Source: a virus
Virus genome (UHGV): UHGV-1841366
Direction: 5' to 3' (one strand)
Length of the DNA stretch: 54,360 bases
A program made the translations under genes and the position numbers. This document shows, piece by piece, positions 1,479-54,360 of the stretch. Numbering within the stretch: the first letter of the stretch is position 1; the number at the start of each line of letters is the position of its first letter. A model generated the notes under the pieces. It was not told the DNA's origin. It ran no database searches and was given only the letters and a program-made list of their open reading frames with translations.

Positions 1479-1545
1479 GTATTTATTCAACTCCTGATTT
1501 TATCCCCCGTAACACCCCTACGGTCAGCCTTCGGTCCATACAGGG

Positions 1546-1675
1546 GAAAGGCTGCATCCCGCTACAGAAACGGCTGGATTGCCTTCGGGGAACGGCTGGA
1601 GGCTTTCAGGGAGACGGTCGAGTTGCCTTTGTGGGTTTCGGGAAAAGGCTCGATGCCGGTTCAGGAACGGCGGCG
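1546..1675. repeat. iteron-like array, six imperfect GRAAMGGCYG repeats
   Basis: Copies start near 1546, 1567, 1589, 1610, 1642 and 1664; spacing 21-22 bp with one 32-bp step. Confidence 0.6.
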
Positions 1676-4061: not shown

Positions 4062-4104
4062 AGCGCCAGAAAAGCCAACGGGAGCGATTCTGGCGCTTTT
4101 TTTG
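4062..4104 (+). terminator. rho-independent terminator
   Basis: 9-bp stem AGCGCCAGA / TCTGGCGCT followed by TTTTTTT. Confidence 0.7.
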
Positions 4105-4221
4105 TTCTGGTGACAGGATTACTCCTGTCAGGGCTGTTTCTTTTGTTACAGACGCTATCATGAAGACAAAAAGAGAAGGAAGATCACTGATAGGTCTGGG
4201 AGTTACTTCAGTTTTAAAAAT

Positions 4222-4530: not shown

Positions 4531-4782
4531 ATGAGCTATCAAATTCTGACGACGACAGCAGCCAGCATTACTGAGCTGAAAAGAAACCCTATGGGCACTG
4601 TAGCTGAAGGTGAGGGGGAGGCCGTCGCAATCCTGAACCGGAATGAACCCGCGTTTTACTGTGTCCCACCAGAACTTTATGCCTACTATCGGGAACTCGC
4701 CGAGGACGCTGAACTTAACGCGATTGCAGATGAAAGAATGAAAGAACCGGACATTGTGAAGGTTAACCTGAATGACCTATGA
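4531..4782 (+). CDS. type II antitoxin, RelB/StbD-like
   Basis: 83 aa; overlaps the downstream RelE-like gene by 11 nt; C-terminus (DAEL...VKVNLNDL) resembles the RelB C-terminus as I remember it; GAGGAGG ribosome-binding site. Confidence 0.6.
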   Translation: MSYQILTTTAASITELKRNPMGTVAEGEGEAVAILNRNEPAFYCVPPELYAYYRELAEDAELNAIADERMKEPDIVKVNLNDL

Positions 4783-5053
4783 GCTGGCATTTGAACGCAG
4801 GGCACTGAAAGAATGGCAGAAGCTCGGCCACACTGTTCGTGAACAATTCAAAAAGAAGCTGTCAGAGCGCCTGAAAAATCCACATGTCCCCGCAGCCAGG
4901 CTATATGGTCATACTGACCGTTACAAAATTAAGCTTCGCGCATCCGGTTACAGGCTCGTTTATCAGGTAATTGATGAGAAGGTTGTTTTGCTTGTCATTG
5001 CTGTAGGAAAAAGGGAAAGCAGCGAAGTCTATCACACGGCTGATACTCGTTAG
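4772..5053 (+). CDS. relE: type II toxin, RelE/ParE superfamily
   Basis: 93 aa; the stretch YKIKLRASGYRLVYQVIDEKVVLLVIAVGKRESSEVY closely matches the E. coli RelE sequence as I recall it (not database-checked). Confidence 0.7.
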   Translation: MTYELAFERRALKEWQKLGHTVREQFKKKLSERLKNPHVPAARLYGHTDRYKIKLRASGYRLVYQVIDEKVVLLVIAVGKRESSEVYHTADTR

Positions 5054-5314: not shown

Positions 5315-6034
5315 ATGAGTGCGCGTCTTAAGAAGCTTATCAAAAAGCGTAAATCTCTTAAAGAACATGCAGAATTGATAAATTTAATTGAAAAACGTTT
5401 TCCAGTCATTTCGGATATTGAGGACTTCTATTGGGTGGAGAAATGTAAAGTTTGGGATGGCATTGATGATGTAAAAGATGTGGATGATTTTGTCAGCAAG
5501 TACAACCCAGACATTAACTACAAACTAGCTGATGATTTTGCTGGCTCGTCTAAAGATGATCCGCTTCCTGATTGGTTTAACATTGATGATTATCCTAGTT
5601 GCATGTGTACCACCTACACCAACAAAGATTTTAGTAAAGCGTGGTTTGCTATTGCTTATGGCTGTTATTTCAATAAGTCCGACGGAAGCAAAAGACCATA
5701 TTTTCTCGCTGAAATAGACTTAACCAGCGGAGAGATTACAGTACACGAAAACCACAGGAATCTAATGAAGCTTGTTGATAGCGTTCGCGTACTGGATACA
5801 GACGCCCAGCAATTAACGAACAATGCATGGTTCGGACTTGATGGAGTAAAAGGGGGTATCGAACTGATAATGGGTCATCTTTTAAATGAATACTCGGACT
5901 GGTATCATCCGCCACACAATCCGCTTGAGTCATTTGACGATCCGCTTGAGCCATTTGACGATCCGCTGAAGGACTACATCGATGAACCAATATATATGAT
6001 GGAATCTTTTCAATTAGATATGATTCCAGCATGA
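5315..6034 (+). CDS. hypothetical acidic protein, paralog of 8730..9377
   Basis: 239 aa, very D/E-rich; shares the block AWF..(16-18 aa)..LAEIDL(T/L)SG(E/K)ITV and a C-terminal LEPLESF/PLESFDD motif with the minus-strand protein at 8730..9377. Confidence 0.55.
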   Translation: MSARLKKLIKKRKSLKEHAELINLIEKRFPVISDIEDFYWVEKCKVWDGIDDVKDVDDFVSKYNPDINYKLADDFAGSSKDDPLPDWFNIDDYPSCMCTTYTNKDFSKAWFAIAYGCYFNKSDGSKRPYFLAEIDLTSGEITVHENHRNLMKLVDSVRVLDTDAQQLTNNAWFGLDGVKGGIELIMGHLLNEYSDWYHPPHNPLESFDDPLEPFDDPLKDYIDEPIYMMESFQLDMIPA

Positions 6035-6039
6035 CAAAC

Positions 6040-6070
6040 GCCACCAGTTAACGCTGGTGGCTTCAAGTTT
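6040..6070 (+). terminator. hairpin containing a Chi octamer
   Basis: GCCACCAG / CTGGTGGC stem, then TTCAAGTTTT; GCTGGTGG at 6053-6060. Confidence 0.45.
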
Positions 6071-6077
6071 TGCTCTC

Positions 6078-6216
6078 ATCACCTCAGGTCAAATTTCCTC
6101 GTTTGCAACCTCAGGTCAATTTAAGAATGATATCACCTGTATCCCTGAACTTACTTCTTTTCTGCCTGTTTCATTCAGCGATGATTATTACATCGAAAAC
6201 AAACGAGGAATTAAAA
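6078..6216 (+). promoter_or_regulatory. leader region duplicated upstream of 5315 (copy 2)
   Basis: Direct repeats ACCTCAGGTCAA at 6081-6092 and 6107-6118; block homologous to 5236-5314. Confidence 0.55.
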
Positions 6217-7143
6217 ATGAAACCAGTATTTTTGGGGCGAATTGATATTAGTGAATTGTTTTCAGTTAGAGATGGGTTCCAATATGACTGTGATTGCCTT
6301 GAACTTAATGGTCTTGAACGTGAATACAGATTGGCTATTGTGAATGATGGTAAGAAGACATTTTCTGTCGAATGTTTTGAAAATACTTACTTTAAGCAGG
6401 TGTTGAGAATAAGACAGCATGTGGAGATGTCAATTCGGGAAAACATCAAAAATAAATGTGAGTTTCTTGTGGTTAAAAATGAAGCAGATGAAATAAACTT
6501 TGTTACGTTCACTGATAGTGGTCGATTGGCTATGCTGGAGCTATTTCAGCTGATCGTTTCTAATAACAGTATAACAGAAGCCTTGAACAGTCTTTCAACT
6601 ATAGTATCAAGAGAAAGAGAAAACACTGGCGCTTTAATTGTAGAGGAGCTAGATGGAATACTCGAGAAGATCAAGAATAAAGAGCTGATTATAGAATATG
6701 GCAAGGAAAGTAGGAAAAATAATTTACATTCAGCTTTTCACTCCCCATATGTTGAGCGTTTGAATGGTTTGGCTGCTTTTGTTAATTTGGACTTTAATAG
6801 ATTTTTTAGTTCTTTTTTTACAGAGTGTGGGCTTGTTATTGTTGAGGTAAATAATGAGAACGATGTCCCCAAAATTATAGTACATTCGATGCCTGATATA
6901 TCTCTCAATGAAATTGGGGACAAACTGGAGAATTTATACGATGTAAAAAGCATGGAAGAACTCATAGAGTATCTGGCCATAAATGCGGTAGCCATGGCTG
7001 ATAATGATGTGTTTGGGGTTGGTGCACTGCATGAAGGTTTTCTTGACGCCCTTGAGCTTTACGGGACTGCTCGCTGGTTTCTGTCAGGATTAGTGGATGA
7101 TGCACCTTTACTCATCAATACAGATTATTTTTATTCCAGTTGA
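6217..7143 (+). CDS. hypothetical protein
   Basis: In-frame ATG (MKPVFLGRI) of ORF 6070..7143 preceded by GAGGAATTAAAA; the upstream part of the ORF lies in the duplicated leader. AT-rich. Confidence 0.5.
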   Translation: MKPVFLGRIDISELFSVRDGFQYDCDCLELNGLEREYRLAIVNDGKKTFSVECFENTYFKQVLRIRQHVEMSIRENIKNKCEFLVVKNEADEINFVTFTDSGRLAMLELFQLIVSNNSITEALNSLSTIVSRERENTGALIVEELDGILEKIKNKELIIEYGKESRKNNLHSAFHSPYVERLNGLAAFVNLDFNRFFSSFFTECGLVIVEVNNENDVPKIIVHSMPDISLNEIGDKLENLYDVKSMEELIEYLAINAVAMADNDVFGVGALHEGFLDALELYGTARWFLSGLVDDAPLLINTDYFYSS

Positions 7144-7346: not shown

Positions 7347-7829
7347 ATGAATTTTATCGCTACTGTAAACGCACCCGCACATGGCAATATCGCTGTAACG
7401 TTCTCTGACACTGAAAAACGAGTACTTGGTGCATGGCGCGACAATGAGACGGTAGAACTGTCAGCACAAGAAAAATGCATTATTGCACGCGACATCATTG
7501 GCAATCGTCGTTACTCGCGGGTATTTGAGAAAGCGTATGTGGTAAATTCTGGGTTCGGAACGTTCGTCTTTCCGGTGCGCTCCGGGCGATTCTGCCAGTC
7601 CAAGCTGATTGAGTTCGCTACGCAGATTTCTGTCTGGATTAAAACTCAATCGTCGTTCAAATTTTCCGACGATGAAGCAGTATCGCAGGGGATGCGGATC
7701 GCCAACAATGCAATTAAATGCAAAAACATTACGTATACCGCTGGCGTTGACACATGGAGACTGTTTTGCGCTAACTTTATGCTGAATGTATACGCAAGCA
7801 ACCGCATCCACATCCTTGATGGCGTGTAA
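7347..7829 (+). CDS. hypothetical protein
   Basis: ORF track; AAGGAA ribosome-binding site; variant palindromic motif at 7314-7326 upstream; terminator downstream. Confidence 0.55.
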   Translation: MNFIATVNAPAHGNIAVTFSDTEKRVLGAWRDNETVELSAQEKCIIARDIIGNRRYSRVFEKAYVVNSGFGTFVFPVRSGRFCQSKLIEFATQISVWIKTQSSFKFSDDEAVSQGMRIANNAIKCKNITYTAGVDTWRLFCANFMLNVYASNRIHILDGV

Positions 7830-7838
7830 CTGAGAAGA

Positions 7839-7860
7839 GGGCCAGAAACGGCCCTTTCTC
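7839..7860 (+). terminator. rho-independent terminator
   Basis: GGGCC / GGCCC stem with AGAAAC loop followed by TTTCTCT. Confidence 0.6.
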
Positions 7861-7955
7861 TATAGCCACCAGCTGCCGCAGGGAAATTTTCAGAAACGGC
7901 TAGGAACGCATTCATGAGCCGACGGGAAACGGCCAGGATTTTTTCGGGAAACGGC
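7845..7955. repeat. cluster of four GAAACGGC repeats
   Basis: GAAACGGC at 7845, 7893, 7926 and 7948 (last two 22 bp apart), flanked by a 9-bp inverted repeat CCACCAGCT (7866-7874) / AGCTGGTGG (7989-7997). Confidence 0.5.
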
Positions 7956-8365
7956 TACATTTGCCTTTATGTAGAAAAAACATCGGGAAGCTGGTGGAAT
8001 CCAATCAGCGGTTGTCGGACAGGTGAGCGGGGAAAATCATTATGACTCTCGTCACCTGAGACATCCAGATTTCTTTCATAGCGTAATCACATACGTGATT
8101 AAGTGGTGTGATTATGTGAAAAATCACGCGCACATAATACGCGAGCGGATACGGAACAAAACAAAATGCAGATTCGCGCCGACAAATAAACGCGGATCAT
8201 AAAGCAAGACTAAAAGCCAATGATTAACTATGCGCTATAGCGCAATATAACGCATTTTAAGCGCGTTAATGTGTTAAGTAATGGGTATGTACTGGCAAGG
8301 ATATAAAAGCGCGTCCATGGCGTTATTTTGGCGCTTATTTTTATGTTGTTGGAGTGAGTTAAAGA

Positions 8366-8391
8366 CAATAAAAAAGCGCCATCATTGGCGC
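8366..8391 (-). terminator. rho-independent terminator (minus strand)
   Basis: GCGCCA / TGGCGC stem with 4-nt loop; on the minus strand it is followed by a T-run (complement of AAAAA at 8371-8375). Confidence 0.55.
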
Positions 8392-8414
8392 GTTATGGTG
8401 GGAGTATTGGAAAC

Positions 8415-8439
8415 GAAAAAAGCGCCCATAGTGGGCGCT
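8415..8439 (-). terminator. rho-independent terminator (minus strand, possibly bidirectional)
   Basis: AGCGCCCA / TGGGCGCT stem; T-run on the minus strand; just downstream of the stop of the minus-strand gene 8445..8675. Confidence 0.6.
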
Positions 8440-8444
8440 CGATT

Positions 8445-8675
8445 TTATTTATGTAAACTGATTTCAAATCCCATTTCTACAAACGCTTTTAACATTAAAA
8501 ATATATCAGCGTCGTTCACGTCTGCTTTTTTCCGCTCCTGGTCGCTCAATAAGTCAATTTTGCGCGTCGTTTCGTCTATAAGCTCGACTGCGCGCCCAGC
8601 GTAACCAGCGATCCCAGCGATGCGATTAACATAATATTCATTATGGACGTTAACGCCAGCGATTAAAATAATCAT
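8445..8675 (-). CDS. hypothetical protein
   Basis: ORF track; AAGGAG about 10 nt upstream of the ATG on the minus strand. Confidence 0.5.
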   Translation of the reverse strand: MIILIAGVNVHNEYYVNRIAGIAGYAGRAVELIDETTRKIDLLSDQERKKADVNDADIFLMLKAFVEMGFEISLHK

Positions 8676-10423: not shown

Positions 10424-10987
10424 TTAAAATGGAAGGATTCGGTCAACCCAATCGAAGAGAACAATCATTCTTGCATGTTCCCTGATTTTCATCGTCACCT
10501 GACAAGCATCAACGCCTAACGACACTCCCTCTATTTCACGGCCATCCGCCATGTAGACCCTTATAGATCTGCCGTTTTGATGAGCTTTGCGACATATCTT
10601 AAAAAAGTCACGACGTGATGGCTGGTTGTTCACGTAGTCAGGATGTACGGTAAGCCTGTCCGCAAAGTCCCCATCTACTTCTGGAGGTATAATCGTTTCT
10701 ATAGAGCTAACTTTCCCAAGAGGAAGACGAACTCGACGCTCTTTGCTTCTTGGAACGGGTGATAGATCAAGTTTGTTGCGTGATGGTAGTGTTCCCTGTA
10801 CATACATGTTGAATACCTGTCCATCTTCCATCGTGACTTTTACAGGAACAGAGTGTGCCCTCCAGAACATCAAGGTATGTTCCACATTAGAATAGTCTCG
10901 CGGCCATACTTCAGCCGGTATGCCGTATGTAATATCTTTCGTCGTCATATCATTATAAAGTGGTTGGCAATATGTCCATTGTACCAT
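10424..10987 (-). CDS. hypothetical protein
   Basis: ORF track, 187 aa; overlaps the upstream lipoprotein gene by 35 nt, so the true start may be the internal ATG at 10948; no clear ribosome-binding site for either. Confidence 0.4.
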   Translation of the reverse strand: MVQWTYCQPLYNDMTTKDITYGIPAEVWPRDYSNVEHTLMFWRAHSVPVKVTMEDGQVFNMYVQGTLPSRNKLDLSPVPRSKERRVRLPLGKVSSIETIIPPEVDGDFADRLTVHPDYVNNQPSRRDFFKICRKAHQNGRSIRVYMADGREIEGVSLGVDACQVTMKIREHARMIVLFDWVDRILPF

Positions 10988-11388: not shown

Positions 11389-11940
11389 TTAATAGTTAAC
11401 TTGGGTTCTGTTGTAAATGTCTATTAAGAAATCGTCCTGCTTTATGTTTTTACAGGTTTTGTCGAAGGTTAATTCACCTGATAATATGCAGGCGTTGTAT
11501 TTTTCGATAAAAATATTTAATGCCTGCCAATTTTTGAAAAGAAAAGAGAAACCATATGACGACTCGCTGCCGTTTATCAACCCTCGTGCGCTGGGATATT
11601 TGTATAAATTTGAATGTAGCTCTAATTTACCAGGGGCAACGTCGCCACAGGAATTCATAATGACGAACATTTTGGATATATCAAAAGGATAAAAAACTAT
11701 GCCGCAATTTGTCCTGTTGCCTTTAATATCCTTCACGTAAATATAGTGCTCGTAACAATCTTTACGCGAGGCATTTAACCTGTATTGTATTAGTTTGTGC
11801 TCTCCTTTTTGAGAGGGTATTAGGTATCGTGTACGCTTGTCTAAGCAGGATTTCGTCTTTGTACGGTATTGCGACATACTGCTCTTTATTTCCGCTGCAC
11901 TTAGAAAGTTCTCATTAAAAGGCAAATGTCCCATTTGCAC
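11389..11940 (-). CDS. hypothetical protein, homologous to the N-terminal domain of the HNH protein
   Basis: 183 aa; SYGFSFLFKNWQALNIFIEKYNACILSGELT aligns with GYSFAFKNRLSIEMFLITLIDYIDSGKIS of 12186..13166, and GIVFYPFDISK with GICVTPQKIEK. Confidence 0.5.
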   Translation of the reverse strand: MQMGHLPFNENFLSAAEIKSSMSQYRTKTKSCLDKRTRYLIPSQKGEHKLIQYRLNASRKDCYEHYIYVKDIKGNRTNCGIVFYPFDISKMFVIMNSCGDVAPGKLELHSNLYKYPSARGLINGSESSYGFSFLFKNWQALNIFIEKYNACILSGELTFDKTCKNIKQDDFLIDIYNRTQVNY

Positions 11941-11978
11941 CTCCGGTTCTTAAGCATAGATAAGCCTACAAAATTAAT

Positions 11979-12045
11979 TCAGTCGATCAAGATCTTTTTT
12001 CAGCCGGAAGTTTATGTATCAAGAAGTGTGATCAAGTTCACATAC
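11979..12045. repeat. intergenic repeat R2 containing TGTGA-N6-TCACA
   Basis: About 80 percent identical to 13217-13285; palindrome TGTGATCAAGTTCACA at 12027-12042. Confidence 0.55.
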
Positions 12046-12185
12046 TGCTTTGCCAGAAGAATACCATATGCAAAACATTCTATTGCTGTTAAAATTTAAT
12101 CGTTCAGACATAAGGAAGCCCTATACCCTCGACAAATCTTTCTGGTATTGTCGAGGGCATGTTTCACATTTATAGGTAGATAGCG

Positions 12186-13166
12186 TTAATTGGTGTTTTT
12201 GTTCTTCTCTTTTTTGCTAATTTCATCACATGTAAGGTTCATTATGTCTATGTTTTCTTGCTTTTGAAGGTTGCCGACAATTTTTTTGCGCAATTCATAA
12301 AATCGCTCGCGTGGTATAGCTTCCTTGTTGCCGTTGATGTGAAGTATTGCGTGACAGCTAGGGCAGACGGCAATCAGATCTGTTTTTGGGTTCACGCTTC
12401 GTGCATCTTCGCCTTGTGAAAGTGGGACGATGTGGTGAGCGTGTAGCAGCGTTTTCGTTTCTTTGCCGTCAATTTCCTTGCCGTATATTTCCGACATCGT
12501 TCTGCAACATAATTGACACCTGTAGTCTGCGTTTGCCAGAACGTCATTCCTTAACCCGGATACGCGGCTACGATGTTGCGACTGGATTAATCTTGTTTCG
12601 CCCTCTATATATTCCTCAACTTCTTCTTTCTGGAGGTCGTAGCTGATTTCTTCTTGAGTCGGATGGACTTTTTTGTATAGAAGATCAAGATATTTAATGT
12701 CCTCTGTTATATATTTGGAATCCTCTAGCGAGGATATTTTTCCTGAGTCTATGTAGTCAATTAATGTAATAAGGAACATCTCTATCGATAGCCTGTTTTT
12801 AAAGGCAAACGAATATCCAAGATGTCTTCTATCTCCTGAATGAATTGGCGTCCAATGAGATTTCTCAATTTTTTGTGGTGTTACGCAGATACCTTTGCCG
12901 ATATTGTTTACATGTTCCAATAATTGATAAACAGAATTAATGCGGTAAGCATGTGTTACTAAAGAATTTATTTTTCTTGTGCCGACGGAGGATTTTGTCA
13001 TAACAACATGATGAGATATTTGTTTTTTTAAAATCAAATCATACGATGTAGCTTTTTGGTTTTCGCCTTTGTCGGTTTTTTTTATTAAATTTAGTTTTTT
13101 ATTAGAGGCTATTTTCTCTATTTCTTCTCTAACTTCTTTTATCGTCATGTAAGTTTCTTTTGTCAT
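12186..13166 (-). CDS. HNH endonuclease with N-terminal domain of unknown function
   Basis: 326 aa; C-terminal HNH-type motif (CQLCC ... HAHHIVPLSQGEDARSVNPKTDLIAVCPSCHAILH); AT-rich. Confidence 0.6.
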   Translation of the reverse strand: MTKETYMTIKEVREEIEKIASNKKLNLIKKTDKGENQKATSYDLILKKQISHHVVMTKSSVGTRKINSLVTHAYRINSVYQLLEHVNNIGKGICVTPQKIEKSHWTPIHSGDRRHLGYSFAFKNRLSIEMFLITLIDYIDSGKISSLEDSKYITEDIKYLDLLYKKVHPTQEEISYDLQKEEVEEYIEGETRLIQSQHRSRVSGLRNDVLANADYRCQLCCRTMSEIYGKEIDGKETKTLLHAHHIVPLSQGEDARSVNPKTDLIAVCPSCHAILHINGNKEAIPRERFYELRKKIVGNLQKQENIDIMNLTCDEISKKEKNKNTN

Positions 13167-13216
13167 TATAATTCGACCTACTGGAATATCTTGATTTAAG
13201 AGGCTACAAATATCGT

Positions 13217-13285
13217 TCAGCCAATCAAGAAATTTTTTCAGCCGGAGGTTTGTACTTCAAAAAATGTGATGAATGTCACATGCAG
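13217..13285. repeat. intergenic repeat R1 containing TGTGA-N6-TCACA
   Basis: Palindrome TGTGATGAATGTCACA at 13265-13280; adjacent 10-bp perfect inverted repeat CATGCAGGTG/CACCTGCATG at 13279-13306. Confidence 0.55.
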
Positions 13286-13313
13286 GTGCGCTCATACACC
13301 TGCATGTAGACTA

Positions 13314-13913
13314 TTAATCATTCAATAATCTATATTTGCTTTTGATTAAATCTTCACCTTTTCTGGTGAACACAAAACCAAATTGCGATTTTTTGTTCAG
13401 TCGAAGAACTCTGTTATCCAGTGCATCGGTTGACGGAATTAGTGTCTGATCATCTATCCAATTTAGTAGCGTAAGAAAGTTCAGCAACCTCAACGTTGTT
13501 GTGCGAAGCTCTTTCGATATATTTTCAATGCTGGCAATTCGTCTTTCTTTTTTCTTTGGCGTTTCGATTAACTTCGCTTGAGAGGTGGACAATGAATAGA
13601 TATTTTCATTGTCCTCATCAAACAACAGATGTTGGGTAAGTTTGCTAAAAAAACCTCGTGCGGATTCGCTTGATAACACTCCCTCTTTATTCATATCATT
13701 AGTTATTCTGTACAAGAGTGGACCGTACTTCATTTCAGGATAACGTTGATAAAAGTTAAGTAATTCAAAAGCAGCATTAGCACCAACAAGAAAATCAGAA
13801 GGATCGCTGACCTTCCAGAAAGAATGATTTTTCTTAGCGCCTGTGGTGTCAACAAATGATAATTCTTTTAAACAACTCATGATGTACTCCTTTCTAACAA
13901 GTGAGCACATCAT
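13314..13913 (-). CDS. hypothetical protein
   Basis: ORF track, 199 aa (an internal ATG at 13881 is an alternative start); no confident domain. Confidence 0.45.
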   Translation of the reverse strand: MMCSLVRKEYIMSCLKELSFVDTTGAKKNHSFWKVSDPSDFLVGANAAFELLNFYQRYPEMKYGPLLYRITNDMNKEGVLSSESARGFFSKLTQHLLFDEDNENIYSLSTSQAKLIETPKKKERRIASIENISKELRTTTLRLLNFLTLLNWIDDQTLIPSTDALDNRVLRLNKKSQFGFVFTRKGEDLIKSKYRLLND

Positions 13914-13945
13914 AGAATTGGTGGATAGGGGGTAAATATGGAACG

Positions 13946-14224
13946 TTACGGCAACCTGCTCAGTATTTCCTCCAGATCTTCTTTGGTCATATTAGAGTTC
14001 TCATAAATACGCATAATTTTCTCACGAGTCTTAGCAGAGACTCCAACGGCAGATGAAACTTTGTCAAATTCAGCCATTGTCATTGTCTCCAGAATGGCAT
14101 TGATAACTTCAGCCTTAGACATTTTGATATTTTTTTCTTTTAGTTTCACTTGAAACTTTCCAAGTTTGTCATTGGCCTTATCCGACAATGACACCTGACA
14201 ATAAGTTGTTTTCTTTTCGCTCAT
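13946..14224 (-). CDS. hypothetical small protein
   Basis: ORF track, 92 aa; stop-start tightly coupled to the helicase gene (2-nt gap). Confidence 0.45.
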   Translation of the reverse strand: MSEKKTTYCQVSLSDKANDKLGKFQVKLKEKNIKMSKAEVINAILETMTMAEFDKVSSAVGVSAKTREKIMRIYENSNMTKEDLEEILSRLP

Positions 14225-14226
14225 AA

Positions 14227-15786
14227 CTAATCTCGTTTCAGAACTCCAAAATCGAATGTGCCATCAATTGGCAATACACCTTCTGCAAAGCCAGGTGTGG
14301 TGTCGATGATGTGTTTTCGCTCATAAGAGTGAGACAACAGGTATTTGTTGCTAATGTCAATGAAATCAGTGATAAAACACACGTTTGCCTGATTTTTTTT
14401 TGCTCGTAAGCCACGACCGACACGCTGTCTCATTTCAACTTCTGCTTTCCCACCACCAGCAAGAATGACCGCGCCCACGCTTGGCACATCAACACCGACA
14501 TCCAGAATAGTCGAGCCTATTAAAACATCTATTTCGCCAGACGCTAAACTGTTCAGCTTTGCTTGCCTTGTCGTCTGGTTCGATTCCCCATAGATGAAGT
14601 CAACTCTAAGGCCGGACTCTTTCATCATCTCCATCAGGATTTGCCCGTGGCGTTTAAGACGAACCAGAGTCATGCAGTTGAGAGAATGTTGCTTATAGAG
14701 CAATGCTTCTCGTACTATGGCCTCGTTTCGTCCCAAATTATACACGATCCCCAACTGATAAGCTTTTTGGTAGGCAGTGCTCATACCTACCCTAAAATTG
14801 AGGTGTTTGTTGGCAAGTTCTGCCTTGATTCTGACCTCGTCTGGTTTGTAGGCAACTTTATGATAAAGGAAATATGGCTTTGCCAGAATACCTCTATCAA
14901 TCAGGTATTTTTCTGTAACTTTAATTTCAATTCGCCCGGCCACAGCCATCAGACGCATGTTGGCTTCTGTAGAAGCCTTCATGAACGGCGTTGCCGTAAG
15001 CGCCAGGCGATAGTCTGCGTTCGTACATAATCTGGCAATGTCATAGAAATTAGAGCCTGAAGACTCATGCGCCTCTTCCAGAATAAGAAGAGAGACACTT
15101 GAAAGGAAGCGCTTCACTAACTCCTGACGTTTGAGGTGGTAGCTCTTCTTATCTGGTGTTGCATCGCGTGGTGGTTCTTCGAGGAAACTTGCAATAGTTT
15201 GAACTGTAGCGACGTTGATATGTCGTGATACCTGAAACTCACCCGAGCCAATGATTCCAACCTTTTGGTCTTTTAACCACGGTTCGCCATTTTTGGCGCG
15301 GTAGTCGATGGATCTCTGGAAGTTTTCGGCCATCTGAAACATCAGAACAGATCGGGTTGTTAAAAATAATGTCATTCGACCGATACGTGCAGCTGCTTTG
15401 CAGGCAACGTTAGATTTCCCACCACCAGTAGCGATCTGCGCAATCATCATTCCCTCGCGAACCAGTGTTTCCACAGTCTGATCCTGATACGCATAATCAG
15501 GATTGTATGGGAATGGGTTAACCGCCGGATTTGGCTTTCCAAGCGCCGGGGCTTTGTCTTTGCGGATATGAACACATTTGATGCCCGCCTTGTTCAAGTT
15601 CGCCGCTACAGGCTTGGCAAAGCCAGCAGGGAACGAGTTTTTACTCCAGTGGAACATCGTGCTTGTGCCCTTCCAGTCGCCAGTGTCGACTTCGTAGCTC
15701 AACATCTGTTGCACCAGTTGCTTTACCTTGTCATCTGCGCCAGAAATAAGCGCATTTACTGCGTTAGATACAATCCGAACAGTCAT
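14227..15786 (-). CDS. SF2 DEAD/DEAH-type helicase
   Basis: 519 aa; Walker A ATGGGKS, motif II LEEAH, motif III LTATP, motif VI QRVGRGLR. Confidence 0.65.
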   Translation of the reverse strand: MTVRIVSNAVNALISGADDKVKQLVQQMLSYEVDTGDWKGTSTMFHWSKNSFPAGFAKPVAANLNKAGIKCVHIRKDKAPALGKPNPAVNPFPYNPDYAYQDQTVETLVREGMMIAQIATGGGKSNVACKAAARIGRMTLFLTTRSVLMFQMAENFQRSIDYRAKNGEPWLKDQKVGIIGSGEFQVSRHINVATVQTIASFLEEPPRDATPDKKSYHLKRQELVKRFLSSVSLLILEEAHESSGSNFYDIARLCTNADYRLALTATPFMKASTEANMRLMAVAGRIEIKVTEKYLIDRGILAKPYFLYHKVAYKPDEVRIKAELANKHLNFRVGMSTAYQKAYQLGIVYNLGRNEAIVREALLYKQHSLNCMTLVRLKRHGQILMEMMKESGLRVDFIYGESNQTTRQAKLNSLASGEIDVLIGSTILDVGVDVPSVGAVILAGGGKAEVEMRQRVGRGLRAKKNQANVCFITDFIDISNKYLLSHSYERKHIIDTTPGFAEGVLPIDGTFDFGVLKRD

Positions 15787-15868
15787 AAACCTCTTTCCTT
15801 AGTGCCTTTTGTATGTTATTTGGCTATTATAATAAGTAAGCAATTACTTAGTGGATTGTAGCAATAAA

Positions 15869-16549
15869 ATGGATGTAAAAATTACGATTTTGCAGGTTGA
15901 TGTTGCCAACCTTCGCCCGAATACCTGGAACACCAATTCGGTTGGTGCGCAGAATTTTGAAAAACTGAAAGGTTCTATCGAAAAATTAGGCTTTTTTAAA
16001 CCAATTTTGGCTCGTGAAATTGAAGATGGATTTTTTGAAATCCTCGGTGGCGAACATCGCTGGCGTGCCGCTATTGAGCAAGGAATTTCAACGGTTCCAG
16101 TGCTTTCTGTGGGCAAAATTAGCGATGTCGTAGCTAAACAGATGTCACTGGTGGACAACGAGCGATATGGTGAAGACGACCAAATCGCATTGCAACGCTT
16201 CATTGAAGAAATTCAGTCAGAACTTGACTATCAACTGTCTGAAATCGCCCCGTATGACGACGAAATCTCGATGGTTTTAGCAAAAGAGGCGGCAATCGAC
16301 CTTGAAGCACTGGAGGCGTTGTCTCGTGGTAGTGATGAGCCTGTCGATACCGACAAACGAGAGAAAACCGAACGTGTGGGGGCGGAACATCAGACCATGC
16401 GCTTCAAAGTAACTTTCGATGCGTCAGATCGTGTTGCAGAAACCATAAAAAACATCATCAAAGAGCAGGCTATTAACACCGGTAATGAAATGGAGAACGC
16501 TGGTGAGGCTCTGGTGTGGCTGGTCGACTACTACAAGGAGCGTATGTAA
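15869..16549 (+). CDS. ParB/Srx-like nuclease-domain protein 1
   Basis: GGEHRWRAA resembles the ParB GxxRxxA box; start taken at the first in-frame ATG (15851 is GTG); neither start has a strong ribosome-binding site. Confidence 0.55.
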   Translation: MDVKITILQVDVANLRPNTWNTNSVGAQNFEKLKGSIEKLGFFKPILAREIEDGFFEILGGEHRWRAAIEQGISTVPVLSVGKISDVVAKQMSLVDNERYGEDDQIALQRFIEEIQSELDYQLSEIAPYDDEISMVLAKEAAIDLEALEALSRGSDEPVDTDKREKTERVGAEHQTMRFKVTFDASDRVAETIKNIIKEQAINTGNEMENAGEALVWLVDYYKERM

Positions 16550-17217
16550 TGACCAAAAAGTTTGAAATCGTATATCGCGACCCGGCAGATCTTATTCCCT
16601 ATGAGATGAATGCCAAAAAGCATGATGAACAGCAGATCCGAGATCTGGCCGCAGCCATTAAAAAGCGCGGATTTGACCAGCCAATTACGGTCGATAAGAA
16701 CGACGTAATTATTACTGGCCACGGCCGCCGTGAGGCTGCAATTTTTGCTGGACTTGAGCGCGTACCGGTTATTGTTCGCGATGATCTCAGTGATGACGAG
16801 GTTCGTGCGAAGCGCCTTGAAGATAACCGACTTGCCAGCATTGATTACGATGCAATTAAGCTACAGAAAGAGCTTGAGTCGCTTGTTCTGGACGATATCG
16901 AGGTTTTCGGCTTTGAAGAGCGTGAGTTGAATGTTCTCGTTGGCAGCATGACAGAAGAAATGGACACCGACTCGCTAGTTATCGATCTGGGCGAAGAAAC
17001 TAAACGACAGAAGGATGAACACACCGAGATCAGTCGTGAAGTTGCAGCGGAAGAAGTACGTGTTGTCGACGTATTGGGCTTTAAAACGCTCCCTGCTGGC
17101 TCTGCCATTGTTGTTGGTGATTTGCTTGCCCACATGGAAGAAATGACGAGAGAAAGCGGGGTAGACGCATTTGTGGCATATGCGGAGAAGATCTCTTCCG
17201 GGGAGATGGCTGCATGA
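16550..17217 (+). CDS. ParB/Srx-like nuclease-domain protein 2
   Basis: ITGHGRREAA motif; ATG directly after the upstream TAA, with AGGAGCG ribosome-binding site. Confidence 0.55.
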
Positions 17218-17879
17218 GCAAATACATCATCAACGTATCGTTTCAGACACGCGTAAATAAAACCACGCGCACGTTGGAAATCGCTGAGTCGTTCGGGCTT
17301 GGCCTGGACGAAAAAGAGTGGACGCTTTACGACAATCTGGAGCTGGAAGTGAAGCAGGGCGATGTGGTGTACATCACCGGCCAATCCGGTTCAGGTAAAT
17401 CCGTTGTGTTGCGCGAGCTGCAACGCCAGATGAAGGATGAAGGGCTTTCTGTAGCTTCTATTGATGACTTTACCTTCGATAATGAGGTTAACGTCATTGA
17501 CCAACTGGGCAAAACTACCAGTGATGCGCTTGGGTTGTTATCTATGGCAGGTCTGAACGATGCATATCTGTTTGTTCGCAAGCCTTCTGAAATGTCAGAC
17601 GGTCAGAAATATCGTCTCAAGATTGCCAAACTGATTGAGTCAGGCGCTAAAGTGTGGGCTGCTGACGAGTTCGGTGCTGTTCTCGATCGTGTAACCGCTC
17701 AGGTTGTGGCATCTAACCTCCAGCGTGCCGCTCGAAAGGTTGGTGCGACGGTAATGGTGGCGACGACTCACGAAGACTTGAAGAACGCGCTGCGCCCGGA
17801 TATGCAGATCACCAAGCACTACAAAGAACGCGTGAAGGTGGAGTATCACAATGGTAGTCATGATGAGGCTCATTCATGA
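17214..17879 (+). CDS. small soluble ABC-type ATPase
   Basis: Walker A GQSGSGKS, signature-like SDGQKY, Walker B VWAADE, H-loop TTHED; ATGA overlap with the upstream gene. Confidence 0.55.
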   Translation: MSKYIINVSFQTRVNKTTRTLEIAESFGLGLDEKEWTLYDNLELEVKQGDVVYITGQSGSGKSVVLRELQRQMKDEGLSVASIDDFTFDNEVNVIDQLGKTTSDALGLLSMAGLNDAYLFVRKPSEMSDGQKYRLKIAKLIESGAKVWAADEFGAVLDRVTAQVVASNLQRAARKVGATVMVATTHEDLKNALRPDMQITKHYKERVKVEYHNGSHDEAHS

Positions 17880-46246: not shown

Positions 46247-46434
46247 GTATTCCTCCTGATGGCCGTGATGTAGGAAGGCCATCAATCTCCTCTGTTCAAA
46301 CTGAGGTTTCGACTCAAAAATTACTTTAAAAGGCTATAGCCCATTACGTGTGCATTATCAAATTGTGTACGGCATATCACCGTACTTGTAATATAGAGGT
46401 CATTGTTACTTTTTTCAACAGACAAATACAAGCT

Positions 46435-46456
46435 GTGATTGCCAATTGTTAATCAC
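46435..46456. promoter_or_regulatory. operator-like inverted repeat GTGATT-N10-AATCAC
   Basis: In the 318-bp divergent region between ataR and parA; a second inverted repeat GTACGG-N8-CCGTAC lies at 46369-46390. Confidence 0.35.
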
Positions 46457-46516
46457 AACCTACCATTTAACCTTTACACCGCAGCCGTAGGCATTTAGGC
46501 TATATCACATATAAGA

Positions 46517-46564: not shown

Positions 46565-47233
46565 ATGACCAAGATCTTTGTGGTTGGCGGCACAAAGGGC
46601 GGGCCTGGCAAATCCACCGTTGCCCAGCAAATTGCCGTTTGCCTGAAAGTCAAAAAGAAGAAGAAGGTTTATATCACTGATATAGATATTCAGCGCACGA
46701 CAACAAGCTGGTGTGAAGACCGTCGACAGAACGAAGACCTTGAGCTGATTCCTTTTGCATACGTTCAGGATGACATCATTAAGCACCTAAAATCACTTCA
46801 GGGTAGAGCTGAGTTTGTAGTGGTAGATGCTGGTGGCTTTGACTCCGAAATTCAGCGACAAGCGATGCTGATGGCTGACGTTATCATTATCCCGCTTCGT
46901 CCTAAGCGTCGTGATTTGAAATCTCTGCGTGACATCGATCCTATTATCGACAATGTTCGTAATGTAAACGATAAAGTGAAGGTCCGCGCGGTCATGAACC
47001 AGTGCCCGGCTTTGCCATCACAAGTGTCTCGCATTCTGGCGGCTAAAGAGATTGTCGAGACGTTTGGCATCGAGTCTGCGCCTGTCAATCTATATAACCG
47101 CAACGTCTACGATGATGCGGAAGAGTCTGGTCGTTCTATCTTTGAAATGACCGGTAGCGAGCGCGACAAAAAGGCGGAAGCCGAGTTTGAAGAATTTGTA
47201 GATTATCTGTTGAGTCTGGAGGAAGAAGAATAA
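46565..47233 (+). CDS. parA: ParA-family partition ATPase (small, type Ib-like)
   Basis: 222 aa; deviant Walker A GGTKGGPGKST; no N-terminal DNA-binding extension. Confidence 0.75.
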   Translation: MTKIFVVGGTKGGPGKSTVAQQIAVCLKVKKKKKVYITDIDIQRTTTSWCEDRRQNEDLELIPFAYVQDDIIKHLKSLQGRAEFVVVDAGGFDSEIQRQAMLMADVIIIPLRPKRRDLKSLRDIDPIIDNVRNVNDKVKVRAVMNQCPALPSQVSRILAAKEIVETFGIESAPVNLYNRNVYDDAEESGRSIFEMTGSERDKKAEAEFEEFVDYLLSLEEEE

Positions 47234-47592
47234 TGTCCATGAAAATGGGTGACCTAGCAAAGCGCAAAGAGCCTGATGCACCGGCTAAGAACACAACTCC
47301 TTTGCGCCAACCAGTCAGACCACAGGGACGCCCGACTCGTGGCAAAGAGAAAATTAAAAGCCGCACAATGTCACTGGAAGACGAATACTTCGAACTGCTG
47401 GAGATGATGAAGTTCATCCCTCGTTTCGAGAAGTTCACCCGTTCTGACGTGATTCGAGCAGCTATTTTCCATCTGGCAGAGAAGTCACCGCAGGAAATCG
47501 AGGACATCGTGAAACTTAACGAGGCGATCACAGCTGCCGACGTTACTATGCGTACCGATGAAATCAAGCGAGAACTCATGAAAAAAGGCTGA
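47233..47592 (+). CDS. ParG-like small centromere-binding protein (putative)
   Basis: 119 aa translationally coupled to parA (TAATG); basic disordered N-terminus and short C-terminal helical region. Confidence 0.5.
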   Translation: MSMKMGDLAKRKEPDAPAKNTTPLRQPVRPQGRPTRGKEKIKSRTMSLEDEYFELLEMMKFIPRFEKFTRSDVIRAAIFHLAEKSPQEIEDIVKLNEAITAADVTMRTDEIKRELMKKG

Positions 47593-54113: not shown

Positions 54114-54188
54114 GATGGTGTAGCTCAGCGGCAGAGCAGTTGGCTGTTAACCAACTGGTCGGTGGTTCGAATCCACCCACCATCGCCA
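54114..54188 (+). tRNA. tRNA-Asn (anticodon GTT)
   Basis: Hand-folded cloverleaf: acceptor GATGGTG/CACCATC, D-stem GCTC/GAGC, anticodon stem GTTGG/CCAAC with loop CTGTTAA, T-arm GGTGG-TTCGAAT-CCACC, discriminator G, encoded CCA; 75 nt. Confidence 0.8.
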
Positions 54189-54193
54189 ATTTA

Positions 54194-54280
54194 GGGGAGT
54201 TAGTCCGTAGGGGTAGCGGGGTAGACTGTAAATCTACTGTCATTGCGACTCGGGTGGTTCGACTCCATCACTCCCCACCA
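54194..54280 (+). tRNA. tRNA-Tyr (anticodon GTA), long variable arm
   Basis: Acceptor GGGGAGT/ACTCCCC, anticodon stem GTAGA/TCTAC with loop CTGTAAA, 15-nt variable arm, T-loop TTCGACT, encoded CCA; 87 nt. Confidence 0.75.
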
Positions 54281-54284
54281 AATT

Positions 54285-54360
54285 GCCGGTTTAGCTCAGT
54301 TGGTAGAGCAGTCGCTTTGTAAGCGAATGGCCAGCGGTTCAAGTCCGTTAACCGGCACCA
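54285..54360 (+). tRNA. tRNA-Thr (anticodon TGT)
   Basis: Acceptor GCCGGTT/AACCGGC, D-arm TAGCTCAGTTGGTAGAGC, anticodon loop TTTGTAA, T-loop TTCAAGT, encoded CCA; 76 nt fits standard numbering; ends exactly at the window edge. Confidence 0.7.

Follow-up and report, generated by a model that had tools for sequence, protein, structure and literature searches.

By comparing a stretch of virus DNA of 54,360 nucleotides (nt; UHGV virus genome UHGV-1841366, the whole of which is hereafter called the window) with related phages and plasmids, we characterized a 615-bp spacer (positions 7830-8444) located where two oppositely directed blocks of genes meet. The window belongs to an Escherichia coli phage-plasmid of the SSU5/pHCM2/pMT1 group, and around the spacer it is 95-97% identical to the phages Cyrano, PhiR41_1 and CMS-2020a. 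A rightward block of ~60 kb, with nearly all of its genes in the same direction, ends there with the gene of a 160-aa protein, and a leftward block of 8 kb, running from a UvsW-like helicase gene to the gene of a 76-aa protein, ends at 8445. A preliminary description of this DNA had presented the spacer as a non-coding hub between convergent operons, and the two flanking reading frames lie where it placed them (Table 1). Between the terminators of the two blocks stands an array of short same-strand GGGAAACGGC repeats, bordered by Chi sites, that comparison between lineages shows to be under strong purifying selection. On this comparative evidence, the spacer is best described as a selected, putatively functional non-coding junction element of SSU5/pHCM2/pMT1-type phage-plasmids.

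Conservation of the non-coding spacer

A search with the spacer alone returned matches in 795 plasmids of Klebsiella, Escherichia, Enterobacter, Yersinia, Salmonella, Citrobacter, Cronobacter and Shigella. Among the relatives examined for its coding status (795 plasmids and 12 phages), the spacer has no consistent gene annotation and no conserved open reading frame (ORF), its ORFs being fragmented and of different frame and length between lineages; a small conserved protein was rejected on account of these frame shifts. The preliminary description had staked its case on related genomes lacking coding sequence at this place and on the repeats being conserved, and both were observed. The position and length of the spacer (590-655 bp) are kept in 15 diverse elements, and position, length and repeat sequence persist across elements of Escherichia, Klebsiella, Enterobacter, Citrobacter, Cronobacter, Salmonella, Yersinia and Buttiauxella.

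Comparison of the window with pMT1, pHCM2, SSU5 and elements of Enterobacter, Citrobacter and Cronobacter gave identities of only 32-37% at the fourfold sites and about 46% at the third codon positions of the flanking gene, against 73-75% in the left part of the spacer (7863-8000), 69-72% in its right part (8271-8444) and 50-55% in its middle. An unbiased sample of 47 unique spacers was retrieved with the flanking protein: 34 of them contain two exact copies of GGGAAACGGC, 22 bp apart in 33 of these 34. The most divergent relative, with a flanking protein of 51% identity, lacks the Chi block and the loop motif of the + strand terminator and differs in nearly everything else; its two central GGGAAACGGC repeats are exact, with a spacing of 34 bp instead of 22. 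A search of metagenomes with the flanking protein recovered no relative below 66% identity.

Conservation is uneven along the spacer. To the right of the + strand terminator, a conserved block (CCACCAGCTGCCGCAGGGAA) contains the left Chi site, and further conserved blocks lie inside the middle segment and in the right part (Table 1). The middle segment itself is a mosaic, for which E. coli elements with about 99% identity elsewhere carry two allelic forms, 61-68% identical to one another, compared with 97-99% in the flanks. Two palindromes of 12 to 16 bp reported in the preliminary description are both present; it had placed them one base too far to the right, and they occur in only part of the E. 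coli lineage, so they probably do not belong to the functional core. In addition, the strongest phasing of A/T tracts at 10.5-11 bp in the window (rank 1 in sliding 120-bp windows) was found at 8261-8420, over the tandem terminators, which suggests strongly curved DNA.

Terminators, repeat arrays and Chi sites

The two gene blocks are closed by one terminator on the + strand (T0) and by three tandem terminators on the minus strand (T1 to T3). A hairpin followed by a T-run was identified by consensus scan for T1 and T2, in agreement with the tandem minus-strand terminators of the preliminary description, to which the hairpin of T3 adds a third. T0, which had been placed at 7839-7860, is not reported by the scan; its stem changes in a compensatory manner to GGGGC/GCCCC in other lineages, where the loop reads UGGAAAC, and this covariation supports its presence. 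T3 looks like a bidirectional terminator, and its stem sequence differs between lineages. T1 (AAAAAAGCGCCCATAGTGGGCGCT) is unchanged in all lineages, loop included, and is duplicated in tandem in the most divergent relative (locus ~4100-4160), a degree of conservation that exceeds the needs of termination alone. T0 to T3 are ordinary in their form, a hairpin and a U-tract as found in tandem or bidirectional terminators at the ends of convergent genes elsewhere, but differ from these in the succession of three on one strand and in the invariance of T1.

The array enclosed by these terminators (array 2) is built on GAAACGGC, of which exact copies start at 7845, 7893, 7926 and 7948, all on the + strand and separated by 48, 33 and 22 bp. 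The preliminary description had counted four repeats, two of them 22 bp apart, and these are the copies recovered here; a fifth lies at 1567, giving five in the window against 1.9 expected. Their clustering is not random, since none of 300 Markov simulations of the window produced at least four copies within 120 bp, the largest simulated cluster containing two. The repeats are listed as R0 to R4 in Table 1; the degenerate R4 (GGGAAGCTGG) reads GGGAGAAGCC in other lineages. A genome-wide pattern scan gave matches at chance level only, in GC-rich genomes, and viral matches with other spacings fell within coding repeats. A full-text literature search found no title or abstract concerning this spacer. 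Arrays of repeats bound by proteins, and clusters of terminators, are elements of well-known kinds; the present one lies outside all families tested.

A related array (array 1) is located at 1543-1673, directly downstream of a terminator-like hairpin at 1446-1475. It had been noticed at 1546-1675 for its matching core, and six degenerate copies were found in it, mostly 22 bp apart. Over ~70 bp, both arrays can be aligned along a common layout (GGGRAACGGC-N12-GGGARACGG-N7-GCCTTT-N8-16-CGGGAA), array 1 being collinear with the 3' part of array 2. In both, the clustered copies are all on the + strand and the array stands just 3' of a hairpin terminator. Across the window and the rest of the Cyrano genome (~108 kb), sites with at most one mismatch to GGGAAACGGC cluster only at arrays 1 and 2, and no cluster of the reverse complement was found. 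This shared layout, which extends beyond the 8-mer, makes the arrays paralogous modules and favours a single binder, strengthening the earlier idea of one protein for both; such a binder is plausible, its binding being predicted from sequence. Array 1 occurs in both the E. coli and the SSU5 lineages but not in pMT1, which has array 2 only, making array 2 the universal copy.

The distance between the arrays is ~6.3 kb in the window and ~3.7 kb in Cyrano, and the interval holds variable cargo, with a RelE/ParE toxin gene (4772-5053, +) and two low-GC ORFs of 239 and 357 aa without family match (5315-7143, +). Small genes are called differently by annotators across array 1, and upstream of it the + strand is strongly A/C-rich and G/T-poor (850-1400), with low-complexity ORFs only.

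Array 2 is bordered by two oppositely oriented Chi sites. The inverted repeat with Chi in both orientations that had been described is present, exact over 9 bp or extending to 12 bp with one mismatch, and the exact, oriented GCTGGTGG is conserved at both flanks: the left Chi occurs in 45 of the 47 unique spacers and a + strand Chi to the right of the array in all 47. Among relatives, the right Chi takes three alternative positions and persists where the left arm has been lost, so selection appears to act on Chi itself and not on a stem that it would form with the left arm. Since each Chi faces RecBCD arriving from outside, the array would be shielded on both sides.

Chi is also frequent in the window as a whole: where shuffled sequence would give 1.0, there are 17 sites, of which 12 are on the + strand (for instance at 2400, 6053, 7160, 18934, 21802, 30426, 33502, 36580, 37266, 37675 and 46829). 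Of the 12 sites in the structural-gene region, 10 have the + orientation, and between 47 and 74 kb of Cyrano Chi is mostly on the minus strand. In pMT1 the polarity of Chi switches at repA/oriR and not at the spacer, and an origin at the spacer deduced from Chi polarity was rejected for this reason.

Table 1. Positions in the window of the features in and around the spacer, with array 1 and the FljA-family gene
Feature	Coordinates	Strand	Remarks
Array 1, six degenerate GGGRAAMGGC copies	1543-1673	+	spacings 22, 22, 22, 31, ~22 bp
160-aa protein gene (phrog_1641)	7347-7829	+	last gene of the rightward block
T0, intrinsic terminator	7839-7861	+	hairpin 7839-7854, stem GGGCC/GGCCC, loop AGAAAC, tail TTTCTCT
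R0, GAAACGGC	7845-7852	+	spans loop and 3' stem of T0
Left Chi (CCACCAGC read on the + strand)	7866-7873	-	oriented for RecBCD from the left
R1, CAGAAACGGC	7891-7900	+	conserved in lineage alignments
TGAGCCGACGGG	7915-7926	+	12/12 identity to the E. coli fliC 5' leader, same sense, running into R2
R2, GGGAAACGGC	7924-7933	+	invariant
R3, GGGAAACGGC	7946-7955	+	invariant, 22 bp from R2
Mosaic variable middle segment	7956-8145		two allelic forms among E. coli elements
Inverted half-site GCCTTT	7962-7967		after R3
R4, GGGAAGCTGG	7985-7994	+	degenerate, overlaps the right Chi
Right Chi	7990-7997	+	oriented for RecBCD from the right
Palindrome AATCACATACGTGATT	8085-8100		6-bp arms, non-palindromic centre; lineage-specific
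GTGTGATTATGTGA	8105-8118		conserved, inside the mosaic middle
Palindrome GCGCTATAGCGC	8232-8243		lineage-specific
GTAATGGGTATGTAC	8278-8292		near-invariant block between the arms of a weak 4-bp stem with some covariation
T3, hairpin AAGCGC...GCGCTT	8307-8343		hairpin 8307-8336; A-run on one side, T-run on the other; + strand scan sites 8311-8335
T2, intrinsic terminator, GCGCCAATGATGGCGC then TTTTTT	8366-8391	-	consensus scan 8391-8376
T1, terminator (bidirectional), AGCGCCCACTATGGGCGCT then TTTTTTCGTTTCC	8410-8440	-	consensus scan 8440-8420
76-aa protein gene (phrog_1585)	8445-8675	-	last gene of the minus-strand block
FljA-family gene (Pfam Flag1_repress)	10424-10987	-	E=1.3e-70, profile 1-170 of 170

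Candidate binders and rival explanations

The repeats are, we infer, multi-copy recognition sites of one sequence-specific protein encoded by the element. The reading that we favour, with a probability of about 0.42, is that the spacer is a junction element whose repeats, together with those of array 1, would be the sites of a single element-encoded nucleic-acid-binding protein, preferably of the FljA family. The choice of the FljA-family regulator of the adjacent operon as this binder is itself tentative and rather doubtful. Its gene, of a family of repressors of phase-1 flagellin, lies 2.5 kb from the spacer and keeps its syntenic place in every relative, the elements of non-flagellated Klebsiella among them. 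The flanking 160-aa protein was also considered as a binder; its model is confident, matched no known fold and was uninformative.

FljA-type proteins block the translation of fliC mRNA (PMC2652032). The E. coli K-12 fliC leader (GATTGAGCCGACGGGTGGAAACCCAATACG) shares with the spacer, in the same sense, the 12-nt TGAGCCGACGGG, plus GAAAC, this match being only partly conserved between lineages: CCGAnGGG is general, and the 5' part of TGAGCCGACGGG is specific to the E. coli lineage. It is the sole match of at least 11 nt to the 77-nt leader in the whole window, and a match of at least 12 nt was obtained in 0.5% of 1500 shuffles of the spacer (P ~0.005; local-alignment P ~0.017). Furthermore, the loop of T0 in most other lineages (GGGGC-UGGAAAC-GCCCC) is that of the fliC hairpin (GGG-UGGAAA-CCC). 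The fliC 5' leader of the host, which the repeats resemble, is the region known to be targeted by FljA, and the exact site within it was reportedly described by Yamamoto and Kutsukake and by Aldridge and colleagues, both in 2006. The FljA-family regulator would bind the repeats on the + strand read-through RNA just past the terminators, a version that fits the orientation of all copies with transcription and the position of one of them inside the T0 loop; alternatively, it would bind them on DNA, which fits the spacings of 22 and 34 bp. In either case, the effect of binding would be to adjust termination, stability or expression at the junction, or to titrate or buffer free regulator, and array 1, as the paralogous array, would be occupied by this protein as well.

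The likeness to the FljA/fliC leader system of Salmonella and E. coli phase variation consists of a nearby FljA-family gene, a same-sense identity of 12 nt and a GGAAAC in the loop of a GC-hairpin; the difference is that a multi-copy array of a phage-plasmid is concerned here, far from flagellin genes and present also in Klebsiella, with an identity that is partly lineage-specific. Going further, the GGGAAACGGC arrays might be the native targets of the phage-plasmid FljA-family regulator, with the host fliC leader a look-alike, a proposal that we consider improbable.

Several observations weigh against an FljA-family binder. The comparison with fliC was chosen after the sequence had been seen, and over the 54 kb of the window a 12-mer match is not rare, ~0.4 being expected. 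The 5' two-thirds of the 12-mer (TGAGCCGAC) occur only in the E. coli lineage and are missing from R1 and R3, so that the invariant motif has only GGG...GAAAC in common with fliC. Non-flagellated Klebsiella hosts retain both the FljA-family gene and the array, and control of fliC therefore cannot be the primary role. A spacing of 22 bp, or 34 bp in the most divergent relative, corresponds to about two or three turns and is no less suited to binding on DNA than on RNA, and the RNA folds no better than shuffled sequence (z -1.2, -1.0 and -0.07). Finally, the FljA-like gene is not among the Cyrano genes reported to be expressed in lysogeny (PMC9928086).

Among the alternatives, an assignment to RepA is hardly credible, whether the repeats were taken as its iterons, as a copy-control (incA-like) locus or as a second plasmid origin. 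It draws on direct repeats ~22 bp apart in arrays of six and four copies, and such same-orientation tandem repeats about two helical turns apart (22 and 33 bp in array 2), in two arrays, do recall the Rep_3/RepFIB-P1 iterons of ori and incA. The preliminary description had spoken of iterons, but in the sense of plasmid-initiator sites the term does not hold: the iterons of RepA, which is of the Rep_3 type, have another sequence (CTCTCTATAGTGGATA), are 21-bp spaced and stand on both sides of Cyrano repA, ~38 kb from the array (35 kb in SSU5), and no cluster of GRAAMGGC or GAAACGGC-like sites was found near repA. The GGGAAACGGC repeats are identical between lineages that share only 51% identity in RepA, which together with the distinct CTCTCTATAGTGGATA iterons means that the repeats are not iterons of RepA; the rep-flanking sequence, the location by rep/ori and the co-variation with the initiator expected of Rep_3/RepFIB iterons are all lacking, as are DnaA boxes, and no AT-rich unwinding element was found beside the repeats, where local GC is 43-55%. 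The array is thereby shown to be an element independent of RepA. Readings of the spacer as Xer/dif, DnaA-box, IHF, sigma-54, sigma-28 or ECF promoter sites were inspected by eye, and none fits. That the spacer consists of terminators with chance or hitch-hiking repeats, and has no separate function, is very improbable as well: terminators account for part of the conservation on the right, but the left part is 73-75% identical against 32-37% at neutral sites, the repeats are exact in the most divergent relative and no such cluster arose in simulations. An independent non-coding RNA, acting as an immunity or antisense RNA or as a protein sponge, with the repeats as operators or loop motifs and the mosaic middle setting specificity, seems to us quite unlikely. 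In its favour are ~450 bp of non-coding sequence, conserved and delimited on either strand by terminators, and a middle segment made of alleles swapped between near-identical elements; small GCCG...CGGC stems put GGGAAA in loops, and the conserved TGTGATTAT, on our reading of the alignment, could serve as an extended -10 element. However, a promoter scan of the spacer gave no match, and the whole genome contains no complementary copy of the repeat. A search of the spacer with Rfam covariance models returned nothing at gathering score or by E-value threshold, with sub-threshold matches on terminators only, and folding with covariation of its left, middle and right parts on both strands found nothing beyond T0 (covariation terms ~0 to -1.3, driven by T0).

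Two further explanations would make the array a site of DNA maintenance. We regard as unlikely, but as more credible than the other alternatives, that it is a centromere-like or clamp-loading site for a partition-type protein with a role in segregation or DNA organisation. Short same-strand repeats with whole-turn phasing (22, 33 or 34 bp), lying in non-coding DNA that is insulated from transcription and not confined to a single locus, are shared with centromere arrays (P1 parS boxes, R1 parC, N15, ParB parS/Noc NBS), and the phage-plasmid N15 has dispersed centromere sites. Candidate binders are at hand in two orphan, paralogous ParB/Noc-like proteins (15851-17217), ParB_N proteins with a GxxRxxA box that match Spo0J and Noc, or in the partner (47233-47592) of the type Ib ParA (46565-47233), a 119-aa protein with a weak ribbon-helix-helix (RHH)-like match. 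The half-sites of ParB parS and Noc NBS resemble the GGGAAAC core, which combines GTGAAAC, half of parS, with GGGAAAT, half of the Noc site, in a hybrid; these half-sites were reportedly described by Jalal and colleagues in 2020. On the other hand, the array is non-palindromic and not adjacent to par genes, the region upstream of parA carries unrelated palindromes (TGTGATT...AATCACA) instead of GGGAAACGGC, and the model of the ParB-like protein (predicted local distance difference test score, pLDDT, 36) does not confirm a helix-turn-helix domain. A canonical parS or Noc NBS palindrome of 16 (or 14) bp in the array was rejected, the only matches having three mismatches and occurring at chance frequency. 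With a probability that we place as low as that of a non-coding RNA, the array could instead be an origin of lytic-mode replication or an entry site of recombination-dependent replication. Its repeats would then bind a phage initiator, as at lambda ori or SPP1 oriL/oriR, and Chi together with T4-like recombination genes would feed forks. SPP1 has two separated repeat arrays, and repeat arrays at two sites of a phage genome are indeed the point of likeness. The site is terminator-insulated with convergent Chi flanks, nowhere in the window are A/T tracts more strongly phased with the helix than in the right part of the spacer, and the element encodes UvsW, UvsY, a gp32-like single-stranded DNA-binding protein, RecA, SbcCD, DnaB and a primase. 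Yet an adjacent unwinding element and a nearby initiator gene are missing here; Chi polarity in pMT1 switches at repA/oriR instead of at the spacer, and the pMT1 array is unchanged although the helicase/primase module of the window was not seen in the pMT1 annotation.

A few partition-related features were noted in passing. The ParB/Noc-like pair is followed by a stand-alone ABC-type ATPase (15851-17879, +), ~1.4 kb upstream of the ORF that precedes the large terminase gene. A parS-like near-palindrome, AGTTTCACTTGAAACT (14142-14157), 13/16 to canonical parS, lies within a small minus-strand gene beside the uvsW-like gene; it was rejected as parS, being inside a gene and present at E. coli-lineage loci only. 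The heptads TGTGATT/AATCACA, palindromic upstream of the type Ib parA (46434-46457), recur in the spacer at 8085-8113; they are at chance level in the window (11 against 10.8 expected), and as a site of the RHH partner they are a weak lead.

Neighbouring genes and biological significance

Elsewhere around the locus, two genes found in relatives shortly before the left end of the window (Cyrano 89738-93029; PhiR41_1 locus 11802-15093) encode an mrp (apbC)-like ATPase and a full methionyl-tRNA synthetase; both appear to be captured chromosomal genes. The minus-strand block includes a 326-aa ORF with a weak HNH endonuclease motif (12186-13166), and a cluster of tRNA genes (Asn, Tyr, Thr) is found at the right end of the window (54114-54360, +).

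SSU5-type phage-plasmids are common in clinical Enterobacterales and carry resistance genes; the Yersinia pestis plasmid pMT1 and the Salmonella Typhi plasmid pHCM2 are among them. Beyond RepA and the partition genes, almost nothing of their control circuits has been mapped. The spacer is among their most conserved non-coding stretches, and the invariant repeat motif within it is therefore the mark of a core function in cis. Were the binder a partition or replication protein, the site could be used for curing or tracking these plasmids. If instead the link to FljA is true, it would provide a function for a conserved phage-plasmid gene and a hint at the origin of flagellar phase-variation repressors. 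Should the arrays even be the native targets of this regulator, these repressors would descend from a phage-plasmid regulator-and-target module, linking the control of a phage-plasmid junction to the shut-off of host flagellin.

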